64,000 nucleotides of DNA from a virus (lineage: Duplodnaviria > Heunggongvirae > Uroviricota > Caudoviricetes): positions 1 through 64,000 of IMG/VR virus record IMGVR_UViG_3300046385_000126. The stretch is one strand, 5' to 3'. Every line of letters starts with the position of its first letter. The stretch's first letter is position 1. This document shows positions 2,614 to 50,905 of the stretch, one piece after another. The translations under genes were made by a program, and so were the position numbers. The notes beneath the pieces are model-generated. The model made no database searches. It had not been told where the DNA came from and was given only the letters and a program-made list of their open reading frames with translations.

Positions 2614-2787
2614 TTCTAATATTCCTGTTGATGACAGGATCGATCGCTATCGGTATTTCTACCTTCCGAGAGCTAACAGGTAAAGAAAAATGGCAGTTGA
2701 CGAAGTTGGTTGCTTACGGTACAATGTGTGCTGCAATCGCATTTGTGATTCTTGGTTTGGTTGTTTCAATTTTTTAAAGAGGATATC

Positions 2788-36687: not shown

Positions 36688-37562
36688 TTCAGCAACCGCT
36701 TGATAATATCTTTTTCTGTTTTCAGTGCGTTAGGTTTTTTAGTGTCAATGCACGACTCATAACCCATGCCAGTAAAGATCTGTGCCATCTGTTCTTCATT
36801 GAGCTTTTTGTCGATGTATGTCTTTAACTTGGTCGATAATGCCGTATTACCTACAAATAGTTGGCGACTTTTGAACCCATGAATATCAACCCCGACATCT
36901 TTGAACGTAGGGACATCAGGATACTTTTTAAGAGGTTGTGACGCTGCTAGGATTCTAAACTTACCTGAGTCGATGAGAGGTGAAACCAGTGTAACACTAT
37001 CCAAATACCACACGATTGTATCGGCAAGAAGAGCATTCATAACATCAGCAGCACCCTTGAATGGAATCTCGATTTGGTTCTTATCACCTCCTGCGATTAG
37101 TGGCGACACCATACTCTGCACCGTACCAGTTCCTGATGTGCCGTATGGGATTGTTCTGGTTGCTGATGCTGAGCGAATATCTTGAAATCGTTTGATCGGG
37201 CTATCTGCTTTCACAATAACAACACTTGGATCGGTAATTAGACACGACAAGAAAATGAAGTCGTTTTCGATATCGTATTTTGCATTGCCAAGTAGTGTAT
37301 TAGTGACGAGTGCTTGACCACTTACCAGTAGCGTCGGTTCACTCTTTTCATTTGCTACAAGAGTTGCTCCAAGAGCTCCGCCAGCTCCTGGTTTGTTCTC
37401 AACCACAAAAGTGTATTCATCGTTGGTTAGATGAGTCTGCAATTGACGTGCTAATTTGTCTGATGTTCCCCCTGCTGTGTATGGAACGACTATCTTAATG
37501 GTTTCTTTTGCGTATGTGGTAAAGCTAGCAGCTAAGAGTAGAATGGTAATTAGTTTTTTCAT
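36684..37562 (-). CDS. periplasmic substrate-binding protein, TctC/Bug-like
   Basis: Signal peptide MKKLITILLLAASFTTYA. IVVPYTAGGTSD...KPGAGGALG resembles tripartite tricarboxylate transporter binding proteins. Confidence 0.5.
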   Translation of the reverse strand: MKKLITILLLAASFTTYAKETIKIVVPYTAGGTSDKLARQLQTHLTNDEYTFVVENKPGAGGALGATLVANEKSEPTLLVSGQALVTNTLLGNAKYDIENDFIFLSCLITDPSVVIVKADSPIKRFQDIRSASATRTIPYGTSGTGTVQSMVSPLIAGGDKNQIEIPFKGAADVMNALLADTIVWYLDSVTLVSPLIDSGKFRILAASQPLKKYPDVPTFKDVGVDIHGFKSRQLFVGNTALSTKLKTYIDKKLNEEQMAQIFTGMGYESCIDTKKPNALKTEKDIIKRLLK

Positions 37563-39777: not shown

Positions 39778-40260
39778 TTATGCAGCTAATACTTCCTTCA
39801 AACGATCAGCAGCGTATGATGCAGCAAACGCTCTTGGTTTAACCATTGGGATAACGTTACACGTTCCCTTGATGTATCCAATTGCTTGCTGTACAACACA
39901 GCTTGAACCATACATTTCGTTTGGGTTAATATCTAGGTGAACTTCAACTTCCCGATCTTCCAATACATCTTTCAACTTTTGGAACAAATCAGAAACCTTA
40001 TACACTTCGTTCATCAACCGCATTGAAGGCTTGCTCTTCTTTTGATCGTAGTCAAGTTCGGTTTGCACTTCACCGAAAATCTTACAACCATGACATCCAT
40101 CGATGTGTACAACAACGGCGAGAGTATAGTCAGCATACCATTGGCCATTCAGTTTAAAGCGTACTGAATCAGCGCCAATGTAAATCTTTGTAGATGGTCC
40201 TTGTGCCTCAATGAATTCTTTAACTTCATTGATATCTAACTTTTTCATCATACTCTCCAA
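39778..40260 (-). CDS. hypothetical protein
   Basis: 160 aa. Directly downstream of tRNA-Gly on the minus strand. Confidence 0.45.
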   Translation of the reverse strand: MESMMKKLDINEVKEFIEAQGPSTKIYIGADSVRFKLNGQWYADYTLAVVVHIDGCHGCKIFGEVQTELDYDQKKSKPSMRLMNEVYKVSDLFQKLKDVLEDREVEVHLDINPNEMYGSSCVVQQAIGYIKGTCNVIPMVKPRAFAASYAADRLKEVLAA

Positions 40261-40266
40261 AATATT

Positions 40267-40340
40267 TGGTGCGGGGTAAGGGAATCGAACCCTTAACTAA
40301 ACGTTGGCAACGTCTGATTTTACCGTTAAACTAACCACGC
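40267..40340 (-). tRNA. tRNA-Gly(GCC)
   Basis: Cloverleaf with T-loop GGTTCGATTCC, anticodon loop TTGCCAA and encoded CCA. One acceptor mismatch. Sits immediately 3' of the TROVE/vWA gene. Confidence 0.6.
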
Positions 40341-40372
40341 ATGATGGCAGGGGATACGTCCCCTGCCTTTAC

Positions 40373-41791
40373 TTAGGTCAACGCATAGCGATCGACCATA
40401 ACTGCCTTAAGCATGATGCCTTGTGGAGTGAATTGTTCCGTGTTGGAAGACAAGACAGCTTTCACAACTGCTGGGCTAAACCCAGACACAAGCGCCACAC
40501 CGGACTCGTTTGCCTTTACAGGTACGTTGTCCTTAGCGTTCAGGTTCCAGAACACAATGGCAGGAACCTTGTAGCCAGCTTCTGCAAACTTACGCTTGAT
40601 CATCTGCATTGCAGAGTCATCGTACGTTGCGCACTGGTTGAATTGCATGTCTGACAGGATCAGCAACATTTCTGGCATCTCTGCTTGAGGAACGTTTGCA
40701 TCTACAGCAGTCTTCAAGATCTTTGCCATAGCCTTGTTCAGGTTAGTGGACATATTCCAAGAAGACTTAGACATTTGCTGGACCTTCTGAACAATGTTGC
40801 CCTTCAAGTGCAACAGCTCTGGATTGTCAGAGAAAGTCAGGAACGTGTCCTTGAACTTACCCTTGTTCTTATCTGCCAGGTACAAACCAAGCGAGATAGC
40901 AACATCCATACAGGTCACAGAACCAGAACCACCAGCTGGGCAGCTCATAGAGCCGGAAACATCAACCAAAGGCAGAATGTTTGCATCCCCAACGTAGTTA
41001 GGCAGAGCTTCCCATTGCTTTGCAATGTGATCCAACTCGGTCTTACCGTAGTTGTTAGACATATATCCGTTGCACATGCCTTTCAGCACGTCGTATGGAT
41101 ACACAGCCCCTGCGTTAACCTTGACGCCTGCTTCGCCCTTAACGAGCTTAGCAACGTATTCAGCAAACTTCGTACCGTGACGAGTAAACGCCTTCTTGTA
41201 ACGAGCAGATGCTACGGATGGCACATGGTTGTAGTTAATATCATCCCACTTACCAGCACACATTTGCTGTTCGACCACATTCGTCAGATTAACCAACGAC
41301 TTACGGTAGAACTTTGGCGACATGCCGAAGAAGGTACGAATCTCTGCGGCCAGAGGGCCTTGACGAGGTGTCCACTTTGCAGCCAAGCCATTCTTCTCAC
41401 GAAGAGCATCACCTAACATGGTGAAAGCCTTAGCCTTCAGATCCTTATCTTCAAAAACAAAGATGTCATCCCAGCGACCGATTTCTGGCGTCTTGGCCAG
41501 CAATGCTGCTGCAGCATCCTTATCGTGCTTTTCCAGATACTTTAGAATCTGACGGTACAACGCACGTTCACCAGATCCACCACGTGCGTCACGTGCCCAT
41601 TGAGCAATACGCAATGCAACGTCTTTGTCTTCGACGTATGCGGCTACAAAGTCCTTGGTAATATCCTTACCACGGCTTGCACCGATCTTGAAAAACAAGT
41701 CTACACATGCATCTGCAGTGGACTTGCGAGCCTTCATACCGTTAGTGGTACGAGCTTCTTGGTTCTTAACAGCTTCTACGAATGTTGACAT
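40373..41791 (-). CDS. TROVE-like + von Willebrand A protein (Ro60/Rsr-related, DUF2828-like)
   Basis: The N-terminus TTNGMKARKST...LFFKIGASRG resembles the start of a TROVE domain. A MIDAS motif VDVSGSMS lies near the C-terminal third. Confidence 0.55.
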   Translation of the reverse strand: MSTFVEAVKNQEARTTNGMKARKSTADACVDLFFKIGASRGKDITKDFVAAYVEDKDVALRIAQWARDARGGSGERALYRQILKYLEKHDKDAAAALLAKTPEIGRWDDIFVFEDKDLKAKAFTMLGDALREKNGLAAKWTPRQGPLAAEIRTFFGMSPKFYRKSLVNLTNVVEQQMCAGKWDDINYNHVPSVASARYKKAFTRHGTKFAEYVAKLVKGEAGVKVNAGAVYPYDVLKGMCNGYMSNNYGKTELDHIAKQWEALPNYVGDANILPLVDVSGSMSCPAGGSGSVTCMDVAISLGLYLADKNKGKFKDTFLTFSDNPELLHLKGNIVQKVQQMSKSSWNMSTNLNKAMAKILKTAVDANVPQAEMPEMLLILSDMQFNQCATYDDSAMQMIKRKFAEAGYKVPAIVFWNLNAKDNVPVKANESGVALVSGFSPAVVKAVLSSNTEQFTPQGIMLKAVMVDRYALT

Positions 41792-41821
41792 AATGAACTC
41801 CTTTTCAAATCAACAGGTTAA

Positions 41822-41995
41822 ACTTTTTGCTAAGCGGGTGTGCTACCATTACACTACTAGTCGGAATCGAACCGATCCACCTGCGTGGGTTTGCATTAAA
41901 GAGATTGCGGAACTTAACCTAAATTCAGCAGATTGGTTATCATTGAGGCTATCACGGCACTCAGCCAGATTCGGGCTATCTTTATGGTGATTTTT
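41822..41995 (-). ncRNA. candidate tRNA-like / Y-RNA-like noncoding RNA upstream of the TROVE/vWA gene
   Basis: On the minus strand, a T-arm-like GGTGGATCGGTTCGATTCCGACTAG is followed by a D-arm-like GTAGTGTAATGGTAGCACAC. The order is noncanonical, there is no ORF, and promoter-like and terminator-like hairpins are absent. Confidence 0.25.
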
Positions 41996-42223
41996 GTACT
42001 TGCTGTACCCAATCTAAAATCAACAGAGTAGTTTCCTTCTTTTTGTTTTACATGAGAACACGAAACTCATGTCTACCATACGTGTTAACGTATACAACCT
42101 TCAAAGCCCATACAGGCTCCAGTTGCATACCACCTTGGTAAGCCGTTACTGGAATTGCTCCCAGTTAGTTTTGTTTGCTGAACCTACTCTAAAAACTCTC
42201 GATGACTCAATTATCTGTGCTTT

Positions 42224-42748
42224 TCAGATTAGAGTCAACTGTTTAAAAATATCTTCAAGCAAAATAGGTCTAAAATCTGTTTGCTCTACGCAAGCACAGA
42301 AGTACCAAGGATCAGGGTTTACACCCCACTTGTCTTTGACCACATTTGCGTGCAAGTGACCGTGCACGTTAGCCTTGAAGCGGCCTTTGCTTTCCGTGTG
42401 AATGGGAATGTGACTAAAGATGACGTTGTTCATCACATGGTAAGCTCTAATGTCCCGAAAATGTTCTGTATATTCTTCGAGACGGAAAATATCGTGGTTA
42501 CCTTTGATCAGGACCTTGTCGCCATTCAACCTGCTAAGCGTTTTAAGTGCCTTTCGGTTAATAACAACATCACCCAAGTGATAAACCTTGTCGCCAGGAC
42601 GAACAGTTTCGTTCCAACGCTTAATCATTTCTTCATCCATTTCTTCTGGCGTATCCCAGGGACGAAGCTTTGTTCCATCATCACGAAGGAACTTACACAC
42701 ACCGGCGTGGCCAAAGTGTGTGTCGCTAACTACGAATGTCGCAGCCAT
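42224..42748 (-). CDS. calcineurin-like metallophosphoesterase
   Basis: DTHFGH, GD and GNHD motifs. Confidence 0.7.
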   Translation of the reverse strand: MAATFVVSDTHFGHAGVCKFLRDDGTKLRPWDTPEEMDEEMIKRWNETVRPGDKVYHLGDVVINRKALKTLSRLNGDKVLIKGNHDIFRLEEYTEHFRDIRAYHVMNNVIFSHIPIHTESKGRFKANVHGHLHANVVKDKWGVNPDPWYFCACVEQTDFRPILLEDIFKQLTLI

Positions 42749-42755
42749 AATAATC

Positions 42756-42947
42756 TCACTTTTTAATTAGGGGATTTTCTGTATTGTCGTACAGACTGAG
42801 TTTTTCGTTTTCTCTTACCATTGCAGTAAGAGCCTCTTCACGCTTTTTCTTTTCTAGTCGTGATTCGCCAAAGATGCGTGTGTGACCTTCATCATATGCT
42901 TTGATATTTGTTGGTCGTTGGCTATCACCTTTTCCACCATCACTCAT
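42756..42947 (-). CDS. hypothetical protein
   Basis: 63 aa, basic. Confidence 0.3.
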   Translation of the reverse strand: MSDGGKGDSQRPTNIKAYDEGHTRIFGESRLEKKKREEALTAMVRENEKLSLYDNTENPLIKK

Positions 42948-43037
42948 AATAATCTCCTGGTGGTACTAGAAGGTAACGATCCTTCCTGTCAGGCTTATGA
43001 GACCCGTGCATATCCATCTATGCTATAGTACCGTTAT

Positions 43038-43111
43038 TGGATGCGGGTGACGGATTCGAACCGCCGATGCTGCGAGCTTATGAGACTGCAGTGGTGACCT
43101 CCCTACCCGCG
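43038..43111 (-). tRNA. tRNA-like with CAU anticodon motif and initiator-like acceptor (C1·A72)
   Basis: Acceptor CGCGGGT/ACCCGCA as in bacterial tRNA-fMet. T-loop TTCGAAT and CTCATAA loop present. The D and anticodon arms do not fold canonically. Confidence 0.4.
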
Positions 43112-43118
43112 TAAATTT

Positions 43119-43192
43119 TGGTGCCCCTTGACAGAATCGAACTGCCGTAACCTGATTACAAAACAGGTGTAATACCATTATACTAAAAGGGC
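43119..43192 (-). tRNA. tRNA-Thr(UGU)
   Basis: GCCCTTT/AAGGGGC acceptor, D-loop AATGGT, anticodon loop TTTGTAA, T-loop TTCGATT, CCA encoded. Confidence 0.65.
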
Positions 43193-43201
43193 AAAATTGG
43201 C

Positions 43202-43273
43202 TGGCCAACCTGGGCTCGAACCAGGGACATTTTGATTAACAGTCAAACGCTCTACCAACTGAGCTATAGGCCA
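43202..43273 (-). tRNA. tRNA-Asn(GUU)
   Basis: D-arm GCTCAGTTGGTAGAGC, anticodon arm TTTGA-CTGTTAA-TCAAA, T-arm CCTGGTTCGAGCCCAGG. Confidence 0.7.
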
Positions 43274-43311
43274 ATATCTTGTATTATATAGTCGACCCGT
43301 TAAAAGTCAAC

Positions 43312-43386
43312 TGGTGGATGGTACTGGGATCGAACCAGTGACCGCTTCCATGTCAAGGAAGTATTCTACCGCTGAAATAACCATCC
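43312..43386 (-). tRNA. tRNA-Val(GAC)
   Basis: Acceptor GGATGGT/ACCATCC perfect. Anticodon loop TTGACAT, T-loop TTCGATC, CCA encoded. Confidence 0.7.
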
Positions 43387-43390
43387 ATTT

Positions 43391-43465
43391 TGGTGCCCAC
43401 GAAAGGACTCGAACCTTCACTCCGTCGATTATGAGTCGACCGCTTCACCTTTAAGCTACCTGGGC
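43391..43465 (-). tRNA. tRNA with CAU anticodon (elongator Met or Ile2/lysidine type)
   Basis: D-arm GCTTAAAGGTGAAGC, anticodon arm GTCGA-CTCATAA-TCGAC, T-loop TTCGAGT. Confidence 0.65.
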
Positions 43466-43470
43466 ATCTC

Positions 43471-43548
43471 TGGTGCGGCCAATGGGATTCGAACCCATAC
43501 TGTACAGATTTTAAGTCTGTTGCCTCCTACCTATTGCGCTATGGCCGC
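43471..43548 (-). tRNA. tRNA-Leu(UAA), short-variable-arm type with atypical D-arm
   Basis: Acceptor GCGGCCA/TGGCCGC perfect, A73. Anticodon arm ACAGA-CTTAAAA-TCTGT. Only a 5-nt variable loop. D region is GCGCAATAGGTAGGAGGC. Confidence 0.55.
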
Positions 43549-43555
43549 AAAACCA

Positions 43556-43650
43556 TATTAAAACACACTGCTCACTATCTTTATGTACACTATTACATAG
43601 TGGGTTGCATATTGTTCGTGTGTGCCATGCAACTAGCGCCTCACAGTGTG
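43556..43650. other. long hairpin (17-bp stem, ~60-nt loop) in an inter-tRNA spacer
   Basis: ATATTAAAACACACTG pairs with CAGTGTGTTTTAATAT. Confidence 0.5.
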
Positions 43651-43658
43651 TTTTAATA

Positions 43659-43735
43659 TGGCGCGCCAAGAGGGATTCGAACCCCCGACATGCGGTGTAG
43701 AAGACCGCTGTTCTATCCAGCTGAACTATAGGCGC
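43659..43735 (-). tRNA. tRNA-Arg(UCU)
   Basis: D-arm GTTCAGCTGGATAGAAC, anticodon arm GCGGT-CTTCTAC-ACCGC, T-loop TTCGAAT. Confidence 0.7.
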
Positions 43736-43738
43736 AAA

Positions 43739-43813
43739 TTGGTGCTCTCGTCAAGAATCGAACTTGAGTTACATCCGTACCAAGGATGTGTAATGCCATT
43801 ATACTACAAGAGC
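43739..43813 (-). tRNA. tRNA-Thr(GGU)
   Basis: Acceptor GCTCTTG/CGAGAGC, anticodon arm CATCC-TTGGTAC-GGATG, T-loop TTCGATT. Confidence 0.7.
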
Positions 43814-43821
43814 ATTTATAT

Positions 43822-43899
43822 TGGTACCCACAGCGAGATTCGAACTCGCACTGTACAGATTTTGAATCTGTTGCCTCCTACCTATTGCGCTATGTGGGC
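43822..43899 (-). tRNA. tRNA-Leu(CAA), short-variable-arm type with atypical D-arm
   Basis: Same body as 43471-43548 (TAGCGCAATAGGTAGGAGGCA). Anticodon arm ACAGA-TTCAAAA-TCTGT. A73. Confidence 0.55.
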
Positions 43900-43925
43900 A
43901 TTATTAAACAGGATACGTTTTTTAC

Positions 43926-44075
43926 TCTGCTCTACCAACTGAGCTACCCCTCCACTAAACTTATTCATCGAACTCCTCAGACGGTTACTCTAAGTCATAA
44001 CGCTCTTCAAATCGTAGACCAATACGACAGGAATAAGTTTAGTGGAGGGGGATGGAATTGAACCACCGACACGAG
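43926..44075 (-). ncRNA. circularly permuted tRNA-like unit (T-arm + 3' acceptor, 64-nt insert, 5' acceptor + D-arm)
   Basis: On the minus strand GGTGGTTCAATTCCATC then CCCCTCCA, a perfect 20-bp inverted repeat (43947-43966 / 44031-44050), then GGAGGGGTAGCTCAGTTGGTAGAGC. No anticodon arm in canonical position. Confidence 0.3.
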
Positions 44076-44117
44076 GCTTTCAATGCATTTTATGTTGCTG
44101 AATGTATCCTAAAACTT

Positions 44118-44207
44118 TGGCGGTGCGACTGAGACTCGAACTCAGAACCCAGCTTTCGCTAAGCGACAGATTAGCAATCTGCTCTAATACCATTATAGGA
44201 CCGCACC
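44118..44207 (-). tRNA. tRNA-Ser(GCU), type II
   Basis: Acceptor GGTGCGG/TCGCACC, anticodon arm GCAGA-TTGCTAA-TCTGT, long variable hairpin, T-loop TTCGAGT. Confidence 0.7.
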
Positions 44208-44214
44208 AATATTC

Positions 44215-44304
44215 TGGCGGTGTGTGGAGGAGTCGAACCCCGGCCAGCATTCGCCAACCGTCCGCTTTCCAGGCGGATGCTAGAACCATCTAGCTGCACA
44301 CACC
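44215..44304 (-). tRNA. tRNA-Ser(GGA), type II
   Basis: Anticodon arm TCCGC-CTGGAAA-GCGGA, long variable arm, T-loop TTCGACT. Confidence 0.65.
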
Positions 44305-44329
44305 AATAACAGGTTCAATTTTTTACGTG

Positions 44330-44400
44330 CTACCACTACACCAACGCGAAGACCAACTCGCGTCCGGGATTCGAACCCGGCCCCTCTTTTTTACAGAAAG
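44330..44400 (-). ncRNA. permuted tRNA-like unit (T-arm, acceptor-like hairpin, D-arm)
   Basis: Minus strand reads CCGGGTTCGAATCCCGG, ACGCGAG-TTGGTC-TTCGCGT, TGGTGTAGTGGTAGCAC. No CCA. Confidence 0.3.
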
Positions 44401-44439
44401 ATTATTTTTGATTGCTGAAATGAACCTAATGGTCTAATT

Positions 44440-44520
44440 TAACAGGATGCTGTGTTATCGCCGGGAATCGAACCCCTATTACAAACACGGTCCCCAACTG
44501 GACGGCCTGGCAAAAGTGGC
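44440..44520 (-). ncRNA. degenerate tRNA-like element (D-arm and T-arm present, no anticodon arm)
   Basis: GTCCAGTTGGGGAC D-arm-like and GGGGTTCGATTCCC T-arm-like segments sit only ~14 nt apart. Confidence 0.25.
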
Positions 44521-44540
44521 GCCATAAGTTGTTTGCTGTA

Positions 44541-44600
44541 TTCATCCTAAAAATGGCGGGACATTTAAAATTGCAGAATAAATTCTTTACAGAATTATAT
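44541..44600 (-). ncRNA. tRNA-acceptor-like minihelix with CCA
   Basis: GGGACA...TGTCCC + GCCA ends. Internal AATTCT-GTAA-AGAATT GNRA-capped hairpin. Confidence 0.2.
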
Positions 44601-44615
44601 TTTTGTCCCATAACT

Positions 44616-44707
44616 TGGCGGAAAGCAGAGGAGTCGAACCCCATCCCCGTTAGGAGAACCTGGTTTTCAAGGCCAGTCGCAGGACCAACCCCGCTGCATT
44701 ACTTTCC
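44616..44707 (-). tRNA. tRNA-Ser(UGA), type II
   Basis: Acceptor GGAAAGT/GCTTTCC, anticodon loop CTTGAAA, long variable arm, T-loop TTCGACT, CCA. Confidence 0.65.
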
Positions 44708-44715
44708 ATTATTCT

Positions 44716-44979
44716 TTAGACATCCTCATATGTTGCAAGGATGTGTTGCTCTTCAATGATGAAGAACGGAACTGCACCGAACTTTGAAGGTTGGGCTTTG
44801 CTCCAATCGATATACACATAGTCTCCGATCTTAACATCAGCTACATCTGGTCCTGTGGCAATCACTTTACCACGTGGGCTTTCTGATTCGTGCCCTTCAA
44901 CAATAATACCAGATGCAGTAGCATTTGCTGGTTTAATCCGAGCAACTGCGACTTTATTTCCAATAGGAACTAGTGCCAT
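44716..44979 (-). CDS. GroES-like co-chaperonin (gp31-type)
   Basis: LVPIGNKVAVARIKP...SGIIVEGHESESPRGKVIATG...VKIGDYVYID follows the GroES/Cpn10 pattern. Embedded in the tRNA array. Confidence 0.7.
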   Translation of the reverse strand: MALVPIGNKVAVARIKPANATASGIIVEGHESESPRGKVIATGPDVADVKIGDYVYIDWSKAQPSKFGAVPFFIIEEQHILATYEDV

Positions 44980-44995
44980 AACAAACCTTTAAAAT

Positions 44996-45069
44996 TGGCA
45001 TCCCGGGAGGGACTCGAACCCCCACAAACAGTTTTGGAGACTGCTGTGCTGCCATTACACTACCGAGAT
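44996..45069 (-). tRNA. tRNA-Trp(CCA)
   Basis: D-arm GTGTAATGGCAGCAC, anticodon arm GCAGT-CTCCAAA-ACTGT, T-arm GGGGGTTCGAGTCCCTC, G73. Confidence 0.7.
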
Positions 45070-45076
45070 ATAAAAA

Positions 45077-45152
45077 TGGTGCCAAGGGACGGGATCGAAC
45101 CGCCGACACACGGATTTTCAATCCGCTGCTCTACCATCTGAGCTACCGAGGC
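45077..45152 (-). tRNA. tRNA-Phe(GAA)
   Basis: D-arm GCTCAGATGGTAGAGC, anticodon arm GCGGA-TTGAAAA-TCCGT, variable GTGTC. Acceptor has two mismatches. Confidence 0.65.
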
Positions 45153-45155
45153 ATT

Positions 45156-45230
45156 TGGTACATCGTGACGGGATCGAACCGCCGACCTACTCCGTGTAAA
45201 GGAGGCACTCTACCGCTGAGTTAACGATGC
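45156..45230 (-). tRNA. tRNA-Val(UAC)
   Basis: Anticodon arm CCTCC-TTTACAC-GGAGT. T-arm GGCGGTTCGATCCCGTC. Confidence 0.7.
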
Positions 45231-45859
45231 ATATTCTGAAAATAATCTTTGTAATTATCCGGCATTTCGTAGTCGGATTTCAACATAAGATTAGTAACAT
45301 TATCATACTGCAGATTACCGTTCCACGGTGCACCTGCAGCAATTGTTAGTTTGAAGTCATCTGTGGTATTATTCATACCGTGAAGCCAACTACCATCCAT
45401 TATGAATGGTCCATCAACTTCTGGGACATTGACATCGCCCTTTGTTGTTTTAAAGTACAGCGTGCTTGTTTTACCATGCACAACTATACGGAATTTGTGT
45501 TGCATTGTCCCCATCTTATGAGGATCACAATCGATATGTTCTTCGTTTGCAAAGTTTGGTTTGGTTATCAAGGCCATTACACGTGTTTTCGTTCCCATCC
45601 AAGGAAACACAACACTATCAAACCAGACTTTAATACATTCTGGAGTGTATGGCAACCATAAGAAATCACCAGATCTGCTATTCGATGATCCTGTGGCTCC
45701 AGGTTTTGCTTCTTTTGTCATCAACGGTAGCATAGATGTAGCTCTGTATGTATCCCACCACCAATATGATTCATCAACACAAAGAAGCTGTTCAGTAGCC
45801 AGTTCTTTATTGAGTGCTGGTAAATTAACACTAGCAAACAACATATCATCTATTGTCAT
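45221..45859 (-). CDS. hypothetical protein encoded inside the tRNA array
   Basis: 212-aa ORF from MTIDDMLF. Trp-rich. Confidence 0.45.
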   Translation of the reverse strand: MTIDDMLFASVNLPALNKELATEQLLCVDESYWWWDTYRATSMLPLMTKEAKPGATGSSNSRSGDFLWLPYTPECIKVWFDSVVFPWMGTKTRVMALITKPNFANEEHIDCDPHKMGTMQHKFRIVVHGKTSTLYFKTTKGDVNVPEVDGPFIMDGSWLHGMNNTTDDFKLTIAAGAPWNGNLQYDNVTNLMLKSDYEMPDNYKDYFQNMHR

Positions 45860-45872
45860 AATAACTCCGTTA

Positions 45873-45946
45873 TGGGGTGAAAGGGGGAATCGAACCCTCG
45901 TCAACTGTTTCACAGACAGCTATGTTACCACTACACTACTAACACC
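45873..45946 (-). tRNA. tRNA-His(GUG) with encoded G-1
   Basis: Anticodon arm GCTGT-CTGTGAA-ACAGT. An extra 5' G pairs with C73, as expected for tRNA-His. Confidence 0.65.
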
Positions 45947-46072
45947 ATATAGAAACACTCTGCCAGTGCTTGAACCTGAGGTAGCCCTACTCTTCCTGGC
46001 AACGTTCACAGCGTAGTCGACTTTGCTGTTACTTGATGAACTCCAGTGTAGCTACTCAAAGTGTTTTTATAT

Positions 46073-46147
46073 GGTAGGGGCACAGAGAATCGAACTCTGA
46101 TTACATGGTTAAAAGCCACGTACTTTAGCCGTTAAGTTATACCCCCT
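46073..46147 (-). tRNA. tRNA-Lys(UUU)
   Basis: Anticodon arm CGTGG-CTTTTAA-CCATG. T-arm CAGAGTTCGATTCTCTG. Confidence 0.7.
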
Positions 46148-46421
46148 CAAGTGCATACCCAGAACCTTCGCGGTTCAGGCTGCGGCGCATTTGTTTATTA
46201 GTCTTGCGGTGACTACCAGCTTTTCTGAATAATGCCAAAGCAACGAACTGGTTACGTTCCTTGGCGATCTGTTTTCGCTTCATCTCGTATTTCCTTATCT
46301 GCTTCTTTTAAGCGTTGTTCCCACTTGCAGTTGATCATCATACAACAATAGCATGACAACAACTTCGTTTTTTTGCCGTTACATTTGACGTTACCGGCTC
46401 TTGCTCCATATACAGGTGACC

Positions 46422-46646
46422 TCATACACGAACCCTTTTTGGTGCGCCAATGCGGCTTGCTTTATTCCAATCGTAGGCAACTCCGTCTGGACACTTGCCA
46501 TCTTTAACACTATCGACACCAAACTTACCTACTACTTCAAAGTCTGGGCCTTGAATGGTGACAAATACATCTAGTTCTTTAGCATATGACATTGCTGTGT
46601 CCAAGCTAGGAAACTCAATCTTTGTTTCATGCAATATCACATTGTA
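46422..46646 (-). CDS. hypothetical protein
   Basis: ~74-aa ORF from MYNVILHETKIEF. The longer ORF-track version overlaps tRNAs and was trimmed. Confidence 0.35.
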   Translation of the reverse strand, partial: YNVILHETKIEFPSLDTAMSYAKELDVFVTIQGPDFEVVGKFGVDSVKDGKCPDGVAYDWNKASRIGAPKRVRV

Positions 46647-46666
46647 CATATTATATCTTTTATTTT

Positions 46667-46741
46667 TGGCAGAGGGAATGGGGATCGAACCCATCTTCCT
46701 GCAGTCAAAGTGCAGTGTCATCACCAGATGACAATCCCCCA
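46667..46741 (-). tRNA. tRNA-Gln-like (UUG), U1·U72 mismatch
   Basis: D-arm GTCATCTGGTGATGAC, anticodon arm CTGCA-CTTTGAC-TGCAG, G73. Confidence 0.55.
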
Positions 46742-46747
46742 ACAATT

Positions 46748-46823
46748 TGGCACCCCGTAATGGACTCGAACCACTGAATGTCGGAATCAAAATCCGATGC
46801 CTTACCAACTTGGCGAACGAGGT
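46748..46823 (-). tRNA. tRNA-Gln(UUG)
   Basis: D-arm GCCAAGTTGGTAAGGC and anticodon loop TTTTGAT closely match the bacterial tRNA-Gln pattern. Confidence 0.7.
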
Positions 46824-46834
46824 ATAAACAACAG

Positions 46835-46940
46835 GATGCGTTTTTCGAAGGCTATGCGCCTTTGCTCGACCACTGAGCGATCTACGCTTGAAGCGTGGAG
46901 TTGGATTCGAACCAACGTGTCGTTAGACATTGCTGTATGC
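46835..46940 (-). ncRNA. circularly permuted tRNA-like unit (T-arm, 3' acceptor, loop, 5' acceptor, D-arm, CAU-containing hairpin)
   Basis: Minus strand reads GTTGGTTCGAATCCAAC TCCACGC TTCAA GCGTAGA TC GCTCAGTGGTCGAGC A AAGG-CGCATAG-CCTT. The acceptor strands are contiguous and closed by a 5-nt loop. Confidence 0.3.
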
Positions 46941-46950
46941 ATCCTAAAAC

Positions 46951-47025
46951 TGGTGGGTCGTCGCAGATTCAAACTGCGTTCTCGCGGGTTAAGAGCCCGG
47001 ACTTCATCATCAAAGTTTACAACCC
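46951..47025 (-). tRNA. tRNA-Lys(CUU), tentative
   Basis: Acceptor GGGTTGT/ACGACCC, anticodon loop CTCTTAA with a 4-bp stem, T-loop TTTGAAT, CCA. Confidence 0.5.
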
Positions 47026-47029
47026 ATAT

Positions 47030-47105
47030 TGGTGGAGGACCAGGGTATCGAACCCTTGTAGTCATGATCCTTGCAAAAGAACACCGCCGCCCTCGGCTCC
47101 CCCCA
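47030..47105 (-). tRNA. tRNA-like, anticodon uncertain (possibly UGC)
   Basis: T-arm and CCA are clear. The 5' half, with its G-rich start, does not fold cleanly. Confidence 0.35.
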
Positions 47106-47185
47106 TAAAATAACAGAGTAGTTATGTCGAACATGACAAATTAAAAGTTTGGTGTTCTAATATATTGCTGAACCTACTCTAAAAC

Positions 47186-47260
47186 TGGTACTCGATAGCG
47201 GAGTTGAACCGCTCTTCTCAGGTTGAAAACCTGATGTCCTAACCGATAGACGAATCGAGC
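47186..47260 (-). tRNA. tRNA-Glu(UUC)
   Basis: Anticodon arm TCAGG-TTTTCAA-CCTGA. T-arm AGCGGTTCAACTCCGCT. Confidence 0.7.
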
Positions 47261-47265
47261 ATAAC

Positions 47266-47344
47266 TGGCTCCGGATGTGGGGATCGAACCCACCTAATCA
47301 TTGATTAACAGTCAAGTCCTTGCACCATGCTTGGATTTTCCGGA
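47266..47344 (-). tRNA. tRNA with GUU anticodon (Asn-like, second copy, enlarged D-loop)
   Basis: Anticodon loop CTGTTAA. T-arm GTGGGTTCGATCCCCAC. 79 nt. Confidence 0.45.
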
Positions 47345-47349
47345 ATAAA

Positions 47350-47745
47350 ATTGGCCCCGTTTTTTTGTTGCTCTTACTGAGGTGGACGGGAGTTCCTCAG
47401 GTCAGTACGTACATACGCATTAAATTTGTAAGTTGTAGCGTCCCTCATATCGCTACCATTTTCCCTTGATATAAAGCCGGCAGGGTCAAGATACGTCACT
47501 TGGGTCTTGTCCAGTTTGTCCACCTTTAGAACTAGCACCTTTAGAGTGCTGGGATTCGAACCCAAAACCTTTTGCTGCACAATACCTTCGAAGTATATTG
47601 ATACAACGTGACTCCACTTGCTGACACTTACAAAACTGATTTGTAGCGGGCTCCACACATTGATTGAAGTTGCGCTTCGATGTTTAACGCCATTTAAGGT
47701 TCCGCAACACCCCTTACCCTAGCTCCAGGCTAAGACTACAAAACT
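47350..47745 (-). ncRNA. structured noncoding region of unknown function (no convincing ORF)
   Basis: Contains a T-arm-like GGGTTCGAATCCCAG (47545-47565) without a matching acceptor, plus hairpins such as CTGAGG...CCTCAG. The 94-aa ORF on the minus strand has no start context. Confidence 0.2.
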
Positions 47746-47828
47746 TGGTGCAGCCAGAGGACTCGAACCTCTGTGGCAACTAGTATACGATGCACAGGGC
47801 ATCTGCCTCCTCCATTACTGCATATAGG
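47746..47828 (-). tRNA. tRNA-like (83 nt), anticodon uncertain (CUG or other)
   Basis: T-arm AGAGGTTCGAGTCCTCT, CCA, acceptor GCAGTAA/TGGCTGC. The internal region folds ambiguously. Confidence 0.35.
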
Positions 47829-48082
47829 TTTTTGAGAGGCCAACTATCTTTCTCAAGGACTCGTCGGTTTGTCTCGAATGAGAGAGTTTAAACAACCTTA
47901 CACAATTCTACTGGTGTGTCATGCTCAAGGATAGGGCACTAGAATGTAAGGGACTCATCTCACCGTCTATCTCAAAATTTACGTGTCGTTACGGGTTTTT
48001 ACCGTACCTGAACCTTGTTCCACCGCTCGTTTAAAGACTTACATGGCGATCCCGTGCATTCTCATTACACTATGACAAAACT

Positions 48083-48158
48083 TGGTGCTCACGTCAGGCC
48101 TCGAACCTGATCCTCCGCGTTACGAGGGCGGCATACCACCAACTAATACTTCGCGAGC
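48083..48158 (-). tRNA. tRNA-Thr(CGU), tentative
   Basis: Acceptor GCTCGCG/CGTGAGC, anticodon loop CTCGTAA, T-arm TCAGGTTCGAGGCCTGA. Confidence 0.5.
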
Positions 48159-48232
48159 TAATACAACAGGTTAGTTTTTGCGGTTTCAATTACAAGTTGA
48201 ATGCTTTATGCTTGCTGAACCTAACCTAAAAC

Positions 48233-48308
48233 TGGTCTGAGTGGGGAATTCCGAGATCCCAACCTCCAGGTTCCAAACCCGGCCGTCTGCCTTTGACAAT
48301 ACACTCAG
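48233..48308 (-). tRNA. tRNA-Pro-like (UGG) with noncanonical T-loop
   Basis: Perfect acceptor CTGAGTG/CACTCAG. Anticodon arm CCGGG-TTTGGAA-CCTGG. T-loop TCTCGGAAT lacks TTC. Confidence 0.45.
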
Positions 48309-48315
48309 ATAAAAA

Positions 48316-48391
48316 TGGTCTCCGTACGAGGATTTGAACCTCGACCACATGACCCCAAATCACGGACGCTACCAGATTACGCCATACGGAG
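48316..48391 (-). tRNA. tRNA-Pro(UGG)
   Basis: Perfect acceptor, anticodon arm CGTGA-TTTGGGG-TCATG (G37), T-arm CGAGGTTCAAATCCTCG. Confidence 0.7.
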
Positions 48392-48400
48392 ATAAAAAAA

Positions 48401-48484
48401 TGGTGGAGACGGATGGATTTGAACCACCGTGCTGTTAAGAACAGATTTACAGTCTGCCGCAATCGACCTCTCTGCCACGTCTCC
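48401..48484 (-). tRNA. tRNA-Tyr(GUA), type II
   Basis: Anticodon arm GCAGA-CTGTAAA-TCTGT matches the bacterial Tyr pattern. 84 nt, perfect acceptor. Confidence 0.7.
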
Positions 48485-48489
48485 AAAAC

Positions 48490-48571
48490 TGGTGGATGAG
48501 GTAGGGATCGAACCTACTTGCCGAAGCCATGGGGTTACAGCCCACTGCCCTACCATTAGAGCATCTCATCC
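48490..48571 (-). tRNA. second GUA-anticodon tRNA (Tyr-like, type II)
   Basis: Anticodon arm GTGGG-CTGTAAC-CCCAT. Variable hairpin GGCTTCGGC. T-arm GTAGGTTCGATCCCTAC. Confidence 0.55.
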
Positions 48572-48648
48572 ATTATACAACAGGATCCGGTTTGCTTTTC
48601 ACAGCCAAAAGTGAAATATTTTGTGTTGCTGAAAGGATCCTAAAAATC

Positions 48649-48722
48649 TGGAGCGGGTAGGGAGAATCGAACTCCACTCAGCGCAGCTTGGAAGGCTGGC
48701 GTCTCACCTTGAGCTTACCCGC
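48649..48722 (-). tRNA. tRNA-Gly(UCC)
   Basis: Perfect acceptor GCGGGTA/TACCCGC, U73, anticodon loop CTTCCAA. Confidence 0.65.
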
Positions 48723-49094
48723 ATACCTTATTATAGTACATTTCCAAACAGGTGTCAACTGTTTGTAACCATTATCCACATCTTAATATAAGGAGCTACC
48801 AAATACCTCAATGGATCTTGATCCTATCTGGCTATGATAGACACTTTTGACAAAAATGCACTATAATAAGGTGTCTAGCTACTCGACCCATCGAGCCCTA
48901 GACTGAGTGGTTACCCTGTCCGTTGAGTTACCTTATGGAAAGTACTCACAACACCCACGATATTCTCAAGATCCCCATGTAAGCGGGGTTTGGGGCTACT
49001 GCCGCTAAGCAGATTCGAGATCGTGCGCGCCCAGGCTATTGTGGTATTGCCAATATACCCACTTTCGATAACGCTCAAAGTGTAAAGCGGGGTT
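48723..49094. other. noncoding spacer with internal direct repeats (GTAA(A)GCGGGGTTTGG at ~48980 and ~49082)
   Basis: No ORF of convincing length. The repeats immediately precede tRNA-Arg(ACG). Confidence 0.3.
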
Positions 49095-49172
49095 TGGTGC
49101 GTCCCGAGGAATTCGAATCCCCAACCTCACGGGTTCGTAGCCCGGTGCTCTATCCAGTTGAACTAGAGACGC
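49095..49172 (-). tRNA. tRNA-Arg(ACG)
   Basis: D-arm GTTCAACTGGATAGAGC, anticodon loop CTACGAA, T-loop TTCGAAT. Confidence 0.65.
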
Positions 49173-49179
49173 ATTATTC

Positions 49180-49254
49180 TGGTGGAATCACGGGGAATCG
49201 AACCCCGAACTGAAGCTTGCAAAGCTACTGCGTTCCCAATTACGCCATAACCCC
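49180..49254 (-). tRNA. tRNA-Ala(UGC)
   Basis: GGGGTTA start with a G3·U70 wobble. Anticodon arm GTAGC-TTTGCAA-GCTTC. Confidence 0.65.
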
Positions 49255-49303
49255 AAAGTGACTAGTATCTTATCCTATTATACGCGACTAGTCAACGCGA
49301 AGA

Positions 49304-49381
49304 TGGTGCCCACGGTCGGATTCGAACCGACACTGTTCGGCTTCTAAGACCGTTGTCTCCTACCAATTGCACTACGTGGGC
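49304..49381 (-). tRNA. tRNA-Leu(UAG), short-variable-arm type with atypical D-arm
   Basis: Perfect acceptor GCCCACG/CGTGGGC, A73. D region GTGCAATTGGTAGGAGAC parallels the other two Leu-anticodon genes. Anticodon loop CTTAGAA. Confidence 0.55.
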
Positions 49382-49533
49382 TTAATCAACAGAATCCGCT
49401 TTTTTTCATTAACAGTGAAATTTTTAAATTGCTGAATGGATTCTAAAACTTAATATTCTTGACTTATCAGAACGGTTAGTCTACCGGTTGAATTCTCGAC
49501 TCTGATTGTGATTCAACAGACCATGTTGAATCT

Positions 49534-49608
49534 TGGTACCCGCGGACAATTTCGAAATGTCGACTTATCCCTTATCAAGGGATTACTCTGCCTCTGAGTT
49601 ACGCGGGC
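49534..49608 (-). tRNA. tRNA-Ile(GAU)
   Basis: D-arm ACTCAGAGGCAGAGT, anticodon arm ATCCC-TTGATAA-GGGAT, T-arm GACATTTCGAAATTGTC. Confidence 0.7.
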
Positions 49609-49614
49609 AATGAT

Positions 49615-49689
49615 TGGCGGTTCCAAGGGGTAACGATCCCCTTCTTCATGCGTGACAGGCATGCGTGCGTCCGTGAACACTTTGAAACC
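49615..49689 (-). tRNA. tRNA-Asp(GUC) with unusual T-loop (ATCGTTA)
   Basis: Anticodon arm CATGC-CTGTCAC-GCATG is perfect. In the T-loop positions 54 and 58 read A and T (swapped). Confidence 0.55.
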
Positions 49690-49693
49690 AAAT

Positions 49694-49771
49694 TGGAAGC
49701 TGGAGTCAGATTTGAACTGACGGTTTTACGGGTTTGCAATCCGTTGCCTTGGACCACTCGGCCATCCAGCC
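49694..49771 (-). tRNA. tRNA-Cys(GCA)
   Basis: D-arm GCCGAGTGGTCCAAGGC, anticodon loop TTGCAAA, U73, T-arm GTCAGTTCAAATCTGAC. Confidence 0.65.
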
Positions 49772-50106
49772 ATAAAAATTAACCATTAATTGTATCCTCT
49801 GCACTATTTGCCTATCCTCAACACGCTTTACTGCAGTCTTACGGTTTATCGAATAGGTTACATAACGAATGATCAGTCCTCTGGGCTTACAAAGGACACA
49901 ATTAATGGTACACCGTACGGGTAACGATCCCGTCTAATCACCTTGAAAGGGTGGTGACCTCACCTGAAGTCGAACGGTGTACAATTTTTACCATCTACAA
50001 ATTTTAAAAGAACAATGATTGATTTCTCAATCGATGCGTCAATTGTCTCTTAAATAAAACAACTAGTCAACATCTTTTTTTGCTATCCTGAGATCAAAAT
50101 AGTCTT

Positions 50107-50150
50107 AAATAAAAAAACCCCGGTATCTTTCGAGACCGGGGTTCCTTATT
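50107..50150. terminator. bidirectional rho-independent terminator
   Basis: AAAAAAACCCCGGTATCTTTCGAGACCGGGGTTCCTTATTT. The GC stem is flanked by an A-run and a T-run. Confidence 0.6.
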
Positions 50151-50905
50151 TAAAGCCACTAAGAGCTAGATTTAGGTTCCCCGCGTACATCCCCAATCAA
50201 TAAAGCATGAGCGTGCCGCCAAGCTATTATAGCTCGGTTGCTCAAGTTTTACTGTAATTGTCGAATGTAGGTTCATTTGTTTGTTTGAAGAAAAATCTGT
50301 TACGTCAAGTATATATCTAAACGACAACGCATGACAACAGATTTTTAAAAATAATTTTGGTTGGTTATTCTGTTACGAGGAAACCAACCGAAACCCTAGT
50401 CAGCGTTTAGGCTGCCAATGCGAACTTTTCATCGTTTGCGTTTACTTTGTTTTGCTTCTTCGGCCGGGAAACCCCAACCCTACGGTTTTCACATTACCGT
50501 GCTGTCCACTCTGTTACTCTTTGCCCTGTCGAATCCATTTCACCCCCATCAGAAGCATTATCTGGTCTATATCTGGCAACCAACCCTTAATTGTGATAAT
50601 GCTTTTGGTGGAGGTGGGGGTTTCGAAACCCCGTCCAGAACACTTTTCTCTTTGCTTCATACAGCAATAAGTGTATATAGTACTTCATATACACGACGAA
50701 GACAACAGGATCAATCTTACTTTTCTCAAAGTATTTACATGAATGCCTAAATACCTTTTCAAGATAGGTTACCAACCTACTATAGGTACTACCAGCCGCC
50801 ACTCATAGCGGACTGTATACTACTTTTGTTAAAAGTCAACAGCTTTCTTTGTTGACAACTCGTTGTTGTTGTGGTACGATAACGTTTTATTCATTTCCAC
50901 AAATT

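Follow-up and report, generated by a model that had tools for sequence, protein, structure and literature searches.

What kind of RNA is encoded where, within a phage tRNA array, the arms of a tRNA follow one another in rotated order? The element in question, which we call U4, lies on the minus strand of a window of 64,000 nucleotides (positions 1 to 64,000 of IMG/VR virus record IMGVR_UViG_3300046385_000126) from a T4-like phage that carries genes for gp59, gp32, a baseplate protein and a GroES-like protein in this window. The surrounding minus-strand array, at 40267-50697, consists of 31 tRNAs called by ARAGORN and a permuted transfer-messenger RNA (tmRNA). A preliminary description, drawn from the letters alone, had read U4 as a permuted tRNA-like unit with all the parts of a tRNA present and its break between the anticodon arm and the T-arm.

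Here, we find that U4 is probably a Y RNA-like tRNA mimic of the YrlA type, built on a conserved scaffold and encoded as a stable non-coding RNA gene of about 113 nt. The scaffold recurs in multiple copies in the window and in distant phages, where it is tightly linked, on the same strand, to the gene of a protein modelled with the Ro60 fold (hereafter Ro-like), which we propose as the partner of the scaffold RNAs.

A tRNA-like fold closed by a scaffold helix

Every tRNA-like arm that the preliminary description listed is present on the minus strand (Table 1). What it overlooked is the perfect 7-bp helix AGGAUGC/GCAUCCU that closes the whole of U4, within the frame UUUU-AGGAUGC-AUA-CAGCAA ... 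AAAAAC-GCAUCCU-GUU. The unconstrained minimum-free-energy fold consists of exactly the helices listed, with z = -3.56, and none of 200 shuffles folded as well. Nor had a canonical tRNA been missed, the outcome that the preliminary description itself had named as fatal to it: neither ARAGORN nor the Rfam tRNA model calls one at U4.

The circular permutation holds in part. The acceptor helix is indeed a closed hairpin between T-arm and D-arm, but the unit is not a permuted complete tRNA, as an anticodon arm is missing. The CAU-containing hairpin taken for one is an insertion specific to U4, with a 5-bp stem and a 5-nt loop, and is missing from the other 19 aligned units of the tRNA-like class described below; read with a 7-nt loop, it has G rather than U at position 33. 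The ends of the RNA sit in the conserved closing stem, which takes the place of the anticodon stem, and not in a break between the anticodon arm and the T-arm.

Two further candidates for U4 were rejected. A group I intron-split tRNA has no room, as tRNA-Gln begins 10 nt past U4, and Rfam found no intron. A two-piece tmRNA-like element matches U4 in its T-loop alone.

Table 1. Positions of U4, its parts, the other scaffold units and the linked genes in the window.
Feature	Position	Strand	Description
U4	46833..46945	-	about 113 nt; fold, family alignment, covariance model
U4 5' flank	46949-46946	-	UUUU
U4 scaffold, 5' strand	46945-46939	-	AGGAUGC
U4 loop	46938-46930	-	AUA-CAGCAA, unpaired after scaffold 5' strand
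U4 V hairpin	46929-46918	-	UGUC-UAAC-GACA, then C
U4 T-arm	46916-46900	-	GUUGG-UUCGAAU-CCAAC
U4 closed acceptor hairpin	46899-46881	-	UCCACGC-UUCAA-GCGUAGA; 7 positions, 6 pairs and one A.C mismatch
U4 U8-C9	46880-46879	-	UC
U4 D-arm	46878-46864	-	GCUC-AGUGGUC-GAGC, then A
U4 extra hairpin	46862-46848	-	AAGGC-GCAUA-GCCUU; 5-bp stem, 5-nt loop
U4 A-rich stretch	46847-46840	-	CGAAAAAC
U4 scaffold, 3' strand	46839-46833	-	GCAUCCU
U4 3' flank	46832-46830	-	GUU
U1	43910..44110	-	V-T-AS-D order; scaffold AGGAUAC/GUAUCCU; 67.3 bits, in no seed
U2	44311..44427	-	scaffold AGGUUCA/UGAACCU, V hairpin; 92.3 bits
U3	44445..44548	-	scaffold AGGAUGA/(G)CAUCCU, 6 bp; D-like arm then T-arm, natural order
U5	48168..48227	-	short; scaffold AGGUUAG/CUAACCU; hairpin UUCAA-CUUGUAA-UUGAA, anticodon stem-loop-like
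U6	48582..48641	-	short; scaffold AGGAUCC/GGAUCCU; RF01414 23.7 bits
U7	49391..49444	-	short; scaffold AGAAUCC/GGAUUCU; inner hairpin UUUCA-CUGUUAA-UGAAA; RF01414 40.1 bits
U8	47115..47180	-	short; scaffold AGAGUAG/CUACUCU
U9	42025..42190	-	scaffold AGAGUAG/CUACUCU; large inner domain including conserved GAGUUUCGUGUUCUCA hairpin
U10	~41930..42015	-	scaffold AGAUUGG/CCAAUCU; inner domain non-tRNA; ortholog in L001
U11	41815..41920	-	scaffold AGGUUAA/UUAACCU, variant loop CCGCAA; 45.1 bits
Ro-like ORF	40373..41791	-	472 aa; Pfam DUF2828 and DUF7788; PHROGs 'RNA-binding protein'
Calcineurin-like metallophosphoesterase ORF	42224..42748	-	linked to Ro-like gene
RNase H-like (PF04308) ORF	39778..40260	-	immediately downstream of Ro-like gene; linkage in 18 loci
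ORF, open reading frame; V, variable hairpin; AS, closed acceptor hairpin.

Recurrence and covariation of the scaffold

Reading the gaps in the array together with a scaffold scan yielded about 11 units on the minus strand of the window. They share the frame UUUU, 7-nt stem, nUn, CAGCAA ... A-rich stretch, complementary stem, GUU, and the 5' motif of the scaffold is overrepresented, occurring 17 times in the window where 3.9 matches are expected. The stems of the paralogs differ by compensatory changes (AGGAUGC/GCAUCCU, AGGAUAC/GUAUCCU, AGGUUCA/UGAACCU, AGGUUAG/CUAACCU, AGGAUCC/GGAUCCU, AGAAUCC/GGAUUCU and AGAGUAG/CUACUCU), while the inner domains vary and include permuted tRNA-like, natural-order tRNA-like, anticodon-stem-loop-like and other forms. 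No Rfam family reaches its threshold on any scaffold unit. The preliminary description had counted three instances of one architecture. The recurrence is real: its third unit, at 44330-44400, corresponds to U2, with T-arm CCGGG-UUCGAAU-CCCGG, closed acceptor hairpin ACGCGAG-UUGGUC-UUCGCGU and D-arm GUGU-AGUGGUA-GCAC, and U1 has the same order of arms, with an acceptor hairpin that reaches about 20 bp and includes an inserted stretch of about 65 nt. The count, however, fell short by about eight units. U11 has a T-arm and a D-arm with no acceptor hairpin between them.

We followed the scaffold through 80 viral contigs that encode relatives of the Ro-like ORF (loci labelled L001 onward); U3 has orthologs in L001, L006 and L022, and U11 is kept in L083 and L084. 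A scanner that demanded stem complementarity plus G and U after the stem found 286 units on the strand of the Ro-like gene and 22 on the opposite strand, with at least one unit in 76 of the 80 loci; 167 units lie no more than 600 nt upstream of the Ro-like start codon, often as tandem arrays abutting the gene. Because complementarity was built into this scanner, an independent test was begun from the 5' motif alone. The exact reverse complement followed by GU was present within 340 nt downstream of 213 of 314 motifs (68%), as compared with 0.24% for shuffled stems and 0 of 58 on the opposite strand under the same rule. The scaffold consensus reads a.UUUU-AGGAUNN-nUa-CAGCAA ... AAAAn-NNAUCCU-GUU.

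Within this family, 20 units including U4 form a tRNA-like class with the order V, T-arm, closed acceptor hairpin, D-arm. Their alignment has standard pairs in 98.2% of the cells of the scaffold, T, AS and D helices, a share that falls to 36-43% once the 3' partners are shifted by 1-3 columns, and both sides change in 18 of 23 pairs, including all 7 AS pairs and 6 of the 7 scaffold pairs. Invariant throughout are U8, G10, A14, G18-G19, C25, G53, T54-Psi55-C56, A58 and C61. Positions 15 and 48 (the latter being the nucleotide 5' of the T-stem) covary as U:A in 7 units, A:U in 4 and G:C in U4, with a few units mis-parsed.

A second alignment of 18 units, including one of Felix O1 type and one from a mycobacteriophage, was free of any window sequence, and RNAalifold recovered the same four helices from it. 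The covariance model derived from these units gives U4 60.4 bits (E 3.5e-10, a rough value as the calibration was shortened), U2 92.3, U1 67.3 and U11 45.1 bits, whereas the tRNA junctions of the window reach at most 32.5. A covariance-model search had been proposed in the preliminary description as a check; its scores and the covariation bear out the view taken there that the unit is not a decayed tRNA.

A Ro60-like protein encoded beside the RNAs

The Ro-like ORF comprises a TROVE module of HEAT repeats followed by a domain of the von Willebrand factor A type with the DxSxS motif of the MIDAS (metal ion-dependent adhesion site). A phmmer search of the ORF against the PDB found nothing, and a family profile search returned marginal hits, the best being Ro60/TROVE chains over the MIDAS DxSxS motif (Ro60 E 0.045). 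As the sequence link to Ro60 is absent or marginal, a fold comparison was needed. The AlphaFold model (predicted local distance difference test score, pLDDT, 72.9; predicted template modelling score, pTM, 0.65) has a helical-repeat region followed by an alpha/beta domain, and its best structural match is phiRo60 of Thermus phage phiLo (PDB 9KOP, 9L5Y), so that the predicted fold is that of Ro60. The family is very large, with at least 7,900 database matches and 710 cultured-phage records, and extends to giant viruses of protists; its phages include Felix O1-like, Listeria P100, Staphylococcus, Campylobacter and mycobacteriophage genomes.

U4 lies on the strand of the Ro-like gene, 5.0 kb upstream of the ORF, and U9, U10 and U11 are less than 400 nt away, the 3' end of U11 being 24 nt ahead of the start codon. 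The pairing of RNA and gene is kept at 32-49% protein identity. Units with CAGCAA and the stem AGACCnn...nnGGUCU stand beside the gene in the Felix O1-like phage UAB_Phi87; scaffold units adjoin it in cyanophage BUCT-ZZ01; at least five are arrayed in tandem by it in Aeromonas phage LAh_9; three lie behind a promoter in Listeria phage P100; and three follow downstream of it in mycobacteriophage Archie, the middle one being a full class A unit (68.6 bits). In the reverse test, the RNA motif alone retrieved 119 viral stretches, 49 of which contain the Ro-like gene. The strand of the motif agreed with that of the gene in 59 cases and disagreed in none, and 35 motif copies lie no more than 600 nt upstream. 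Records with a conserved class A unit of the Felix O1 type number 234, and in them the unit is almost always unannotated.

Three features of these genomes deserve mention. In several Felix O1-like genomes, the class A unit is labelled a hypothetical protein or tRNA-Thr, likely in error. In LAh_9 (L205, NC_048776.1), scaffold units at 3851-3966 overlap the start (3875) of a coding sequence labelled 'RNA-binding protein' whose homology begins at 4001, and this start is likely misannotated. In P100 (L206, NC_007610.1), a tRNA, the three scaffold units and the Ro-like gene are preceded, just upstream, by a match to the ROOL RNA at 2468-3019, with 86 bits against a gathering score of 99.1 (E 7e-16).

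Other genes keep company with the Ro-like gene. In 61 of 85 loci the metallophosphoesterase shares its strand and is linked to it, with a median separation of about 1.5 kb; a metallophosphoesterase also neighbours the homolog in Archie. Just downstream of the P100 homolog are a phosphohydrolase and an RtcB 'tRNA splicing ligase', and the LAh_9 homolog has a band-7 protein and RNA ligase 2 (Rnl2) as neighbours. A search near the array within the window found no RNA ligase or kinase genes.

Other cargoes on the scaffold

In class B units the scaffold encloses a D-arm, an anticodon-like arm and a T-arm in natural order. Such units in L009 (6427-6526), L024, L001, L002 and L006 hold a near-complete tRNA with a short acceptor-like helix and no encoded CCA; the Rfam tRNA model gives 60.7 bits at 6447-6517 inside the L009 unit. 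A 5-bp stem with a 7-nt loop, in which U stands second and a purine sixth, is found in 33 of the 79 unique short units (42%), as against 1.6% in shuffles. Examples of these loops are CUUGUAA, CUGUUAA, CUGGAAA, CUGCAAA and CUUUUAA, which follow the canonical pattern C-U-NNN-A-A, and the commonest triplets are UGU, GGA, GUU, GCA and UUU. The short units may be anticodon-stem-loop decoys.

Synechococcus phage BUCT-ZZ01 (L081, ON615601.1) encodes two tRNA-shaped RNAs, at ~7595-7710 and ~7711-7824, with an open 7-bp acceptor stem ending in ACCA or CCA. In the place of the anticodon arm they carry the scaffold AAAAC-GCAUUCU-GUAA-AGAAUGA-AUU-CUGCAA, closed by the GUAA loop; the design is that of U4 with opposite connectivity. 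One of the two scores 50.7 bits with the Rfam tRNA model.

Interpretation and alternatives

Ro60 binds Y RNAs encoded beside its gene in bacteria and phages (PMC4201824, PMC12135203). YrlA (RF02553) is bound by Ro60, is encoded on the strand of the Ro60 gene and no more than about 4 kb from it, and has T, closed-acceptor and D stem-loops and the motif GNCGAAN0-1G (PMC4201824). In our model of U4 as a YrlA-type mimic, the RNA would consist of two modules. The scaffold would comprise the 7-bp helix that joins the ends, the unpaired nUa-CAGCAA after its 5' strand and the A-rich stretch opposite, and would occupy the place of the anticodon stem; the other module would be the upper half of a tRNA, namely the V hairpin, T-arm, 7-bp loop-closed acceptor stem, U8 and D-arm, with the elbow kept. 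U4 would be transcribed with the phage tRNA array and excised from the transcript. The Ro60-fold protein would then bind the scaffold in the way that the conserved stem of Y RNAs is bound by Ro60/Rsr, and the tRNA-like module would show a tRNA surface to a tRNA-recognising factor, which would be tethered, gated or decoyed. The sister units, which show a whole tRNA body or an anticodon stem-loop, suggest a repertoire directed against tRNA-targeting host nucleases, or serving tRNA repair or quality control during infection.

Several observations weigh against this model. The 5' region of U4 is AGGAUGCAUACAGCAAUGUC and the family consensus is nUaCAGCAA, neither of which contains GNCGAAN0-1G. The Rfam YrlA model aligns to U4 end to end but gives only 25.1 bits against a gathering score of 69, and the best class A units reach 40 and 31 bits. 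U4 stands about 5 kb from the Ro-like gene, beyond the 4-kb window used for YrlA. Pfam matches the ORF with DUF2828 and DUF7788 and finds no TROVE domain, and confidence in the structural model is moderate. Close orthologs of U4, which would have served to test its extra hairpin, turned up neither in the 80 loci, nor in contigs encoding proteins 91% and 83% identical, nor in a pattern scan of viral contigs. Finally, the Ro60-like protein gp130 of phage Bas63 still counters the ppl defence when moved alone into T7 (PMC11482910), from which it follows that at least one activity of such a protein is independent of the phage's own RNAs. The U4 family thus has a YrlA-like design yet departs from YrlA in two defining respects, the motif and the Rfam score, and appears to be a previously undescribed, widespread variant without GNCGAA.

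In an array so dense in tRNAs, U4 could be fortuitous, formed where the 3' half of one decayed tRNA gene meets the 5' half of the next, and Chen et al. caution that adjacent tRNAs give YrlA-like false positives (PMC4201824). The same artefact occurs here: the ordinary tRNA-Val/tRNA-Phe junction at 45104-45198 receives 22.4 bits from the Rfam YrlA model, so near to the score of U4 that we do not use this model as evidence, a further point that tells against the YrlA assignment. However, the acceptor strands of two separate tRNAs need not pair, and here they are paired and covary at all 7 positions across the 20 units; moreover, a conserved scaffold encloses the unit, the architecture recurs in unrelated phages, and the independent model parts the units (45-92 bits) from junctions (at most 32.5). 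The covariation and the independent-model scores refute a decayed-tRNA junction, to which we accord almost no probability. It is also very improbable that U4 is a true circularly permuted tRNA gene, whose transcript would be rearranged, or opened by RNase P at the acceptor loop and given CCA, to produce a functional or aminoacylatable tRNA. Its acceptor hairpin matches a tRNA acceptor stem in having 7 positions, RNase P cuts the YrlA of M. smegmatis, whose stem has 7 bp, and CCA is added to it (PMC4201824), and the BUCT-ZZ01 versions have an open acceptor stem ending in ACCA. Against this stand the lack of a conserved anticodon arm (the sole candidate being the U4-specific insertion with its 5-nt loop), the scaffold and CAGCAA loop that fill the anticodon-stem position, and acceptor loops that are not CCA. 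The known maturation route of permuted tRNAs in red algae, in which the splicing endonuclease cuts a bulge-helix-bulge motif, is archaeal or eukaryotic, and no such motif is seen in U4.

A different use of the scaffold is unlikely but deserves more attention: it could be a processing or stability cassette, a leader-trailer helix for an RNase, with cargoes that act as decoys or sponges for tRNA-targeting nucleases or modifying enzymes and with the nearness of the Ro-like gene due to co-regulation. The excess of anticodon-like loops among the short units and the near-complete tRNAs of class B are compatible with such cargoes; the units lie among tRNAs with UUUU and GUU flanks that are possible cleavage contexts; and gp130, as noted, acts without phage RNAs. 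Yet CAGCAA does not vary among the phages of Proteobacteria, Cyanobacteria, Firmicutes and Actinobacteria while the proximal stem (AGGAU here) varies by lineage, a combination that agrees better with a protein that recognises the sequence than with a generic RNase site. Co-regulation alone hardly explains the 59:0 strand agreement and the abutment on the start codon at 32-49% identity, and the predicted protein fold is that of a dedicated Y-RNA-binding protein.

If U4 and its relatives are Y RNA-like mimics, the likely RNA partners of a very large Ro60-fold protein family have been identified, among RNAs that are now unannotated or mislabelled as hypothetical proteins or tRNAs. One scaffold presenting several parts of a tRNA (elbow and acceptor, whole body, or anticodon stem-loop) would amount to a phage toolkit against tRNA-targeting defences or for tRNA repair.

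Other features of the array

The permuted, two-piece tmRNA at 50316-50728 (minus strand) encodes the tag ANDEKFALAA and matches Rfam tmRNA_permuted with 119 bits and beta_tmRNA with 106 bits; a permuted tmRNA is also present in the related phages L002 and L081. Together with an ORF of the TctC family (36684-37562), the tmRNA type hints at a betaproteobacterial host. A megablast search of the region against phages gave only short tRNA matches and no close relative among deposited phages.

ARAGORN missed two minus-strand tRNAs with long variable arms, at 44218-44305 and 44620-44707, which score 50.9 and 36.7 bits with the Rfam tRNA-Sec model and are probably tRNA-Ser rather than tRNA-Sec, with anticodon loops that read by eye as GGA and UGA. 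Neither ARAGORN nor Rfam calls two tRNA-like sequences on the minus strand that end in CCA, at ~47106-47031 and ~47026-46951; the second of these combines a paired acceptor stem and a CUCUUAA loop (anticodon CUU) with a D-loop that lacks GG and the T-loop UUUGAAU, and could be a non-canonical tRNA or a pseudogene. At 47747-47822 (minus strand), ARAGORN reports a 'tRNA-???' whose anticodon has four bases (auac), implying that the anticodon loop is enlarged. The array may have an internal promoter: at ~48760-48730 (minus strand), a sigma-70 promoter close to consensus (TTGACA, 17 nt, TATAAT) precedes a weakly called tRNA at 48722-48652. The stretch at ~47640-47370 (minus strand) carries GUUUUGUAAGUGUCAGCAAG and AGGUAUUGUGCAGCAAAAGG motifs followed by the T-arm-like GGGUUCGAAUCCC; the models score it weakly, at 18.8-18.9 bits, and it may be a divergent long scaffold unit.

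Comparison with known systems

The likeness of U4 to YrlA is one of architecture. In both, a stem of the 5' and 3' ends encloses V, T-arm, closed acceptor stem-loop and D-arm in this order, with the elbow nucleotides kept (U8, A14, G18-G19, TPsiC, A58 and G53:C61 are invariant in the phage class) and with covariation of 15:48. Both are modular, with a long stem in place of the anticodon stem, and are encoded on the strand of a Ro60-fold gene, to which other units of the phage family lie closer than U4 does; both have shorter sister RNAs without the tRNA domain (YrlB, and the short phage units) and, in some genomes, RNA-repair genes nearby. The gene company of the distant Ro-like homologs resembles the bacterial rsr-yrlA-rtcBA RNA-repair operon (PMC7790460). 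Unlike YrlA, the phage RNAs number up to about 11 per genome, carry very diverse cargo and are scattered through a tRNA array, and their partner would be a DUF2828/DUF7788 protein that Pfam does not call as TROVE. The rotated order that the preliminary description noticed does not make a new kind of permuted tRNA gene and has a precedent here, as the authors of YrlA have already likened it to circularly permuted tRNAs with closed acceptor stems (10.1101/312249).

Among phages, the nearest experimental parallel is phiLo, whose phiRo60 binds two RNAs (Yrl1 and Yrl2) encoded upstream and recruits the host PNPase (PMC12135203). As in our window, a Ro60-fold protein has small RNAs directly upstream of its gene. 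Yrl1 and Yrl2 are small stem-bulge-stem RNAs for which binding has been demonstrated; they differ in carrying the CGAA motif, in lacking a tRNA-like module and in being two RNAs rather than a large family, and phiRo60 is a recognisable TROVE protein. In Bas63, gp130 lies beside a tRNA block, and some of the tRNA genes near it have been speculated, in a preprint, to be Y RNAs (PMC11482910). That speculation now becomes testable, with coordinates. Bas63 gp130 appears to belong to the Ro-like family, judging from the placement of Bas63 in Felixounavirus and the gene layout of Felix O1-like phages.

In the permuted tRNA genes of the red alga Cyanidioschyzon merolae, the T-arm and the 3' strand of the acceptor (the 3' half of the tRNA) come upstream of the acceptor's 5' strand and the D-arm (the 5' half), and U4 resembles these genes in this order of halves at the DNA level. 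The algal tRNAs are complete, anticodon arm included, and in maturing pass through a circular form made by the splicing endonuclease, whereas U4 lacks an anticodon arm and ends in the conserved scaffold.

An unexpected likeness is to the Class I RNAs of Dictyostelium. These RNAs, 42-65 nt in length, are closed by a covarying terminal stem of 6 bp and carry a conserved 5' G, a motif of 11 nt beside the 5' strand of the stem, an interior that varies and a 3' CUGU; reportedly, they are unique to Dictyostelia and have no known mechanism (Kjellin et al. 2021, PMC7919456). The Rfam model RF01414 (consensus GaUcuCC-UUA-CAGCAA-Uua...GagAuC-UG) matches U7 best, over its whole length, with 40.1 bits, just below its gathering score of 41.5 (E 7.6e-6 when 1.3 kb was searched), and further matches 3581-3637 of L010 (32.7 bits), U6 (23.7 bits) and part of an Archie unit (18.9 bits). 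No phage unit reaches the threshold, and U4 is not matched. The phage consensus (A)GG...CCU-GU(U) has the covarying 5'/3' stem of 6-7 bp, with the 5' G pairing with the C of CUGU, and the units also carry the 11-nt motif (U, C, C, A and A at positions 3, 6, 9, 10 and 11): phage nUaCAGCAA corresponds to positions 4-11 of the Rfam consensus CCUUACAGCAA, and position 3 is U in about half of the units. Both sets of RNAs have a variable inner part, an A-rich 3' segment and many paralogs per genome. In length (about 45-65 nt), Class I RNAs resemble the short phage units (47-70 nt) alone, U4 being 113 nt long. They differ in being eukaryotic nuclear genes of dictyostelid genomes, with a Dictyostelium upstream sequence element (DUSE) promoter and probable termination by RNA polymerase III; their direct binder is Rnp1A/CIBP, a protein with an RNA recognition motif, and no tRNA-like cargo has been described for them.

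Both homology and convergence could produce this likeness. A tentative idea, to which we give the lesser chance, is that the phage scaffold RNAs and Class I RNAs form one family, sharing the covarying 5'/3' stem, UUACAGCAA, variable cargo and 3' CUGU, with a Ro60-fold DUF2828/DUF7788 protein as cognate partner, in which case Class I RNAs would be Y-RNA-like. The partner family occurs in phages, giant viruses of amoebae and eukaryotes, and the phage versions would then reveal the use of the variable region, namely to show tRNA parts or other ligands on a Ro-type platform. The match could in this way give a mechanistic handle on an abundant class of eukaryotic RNAs.

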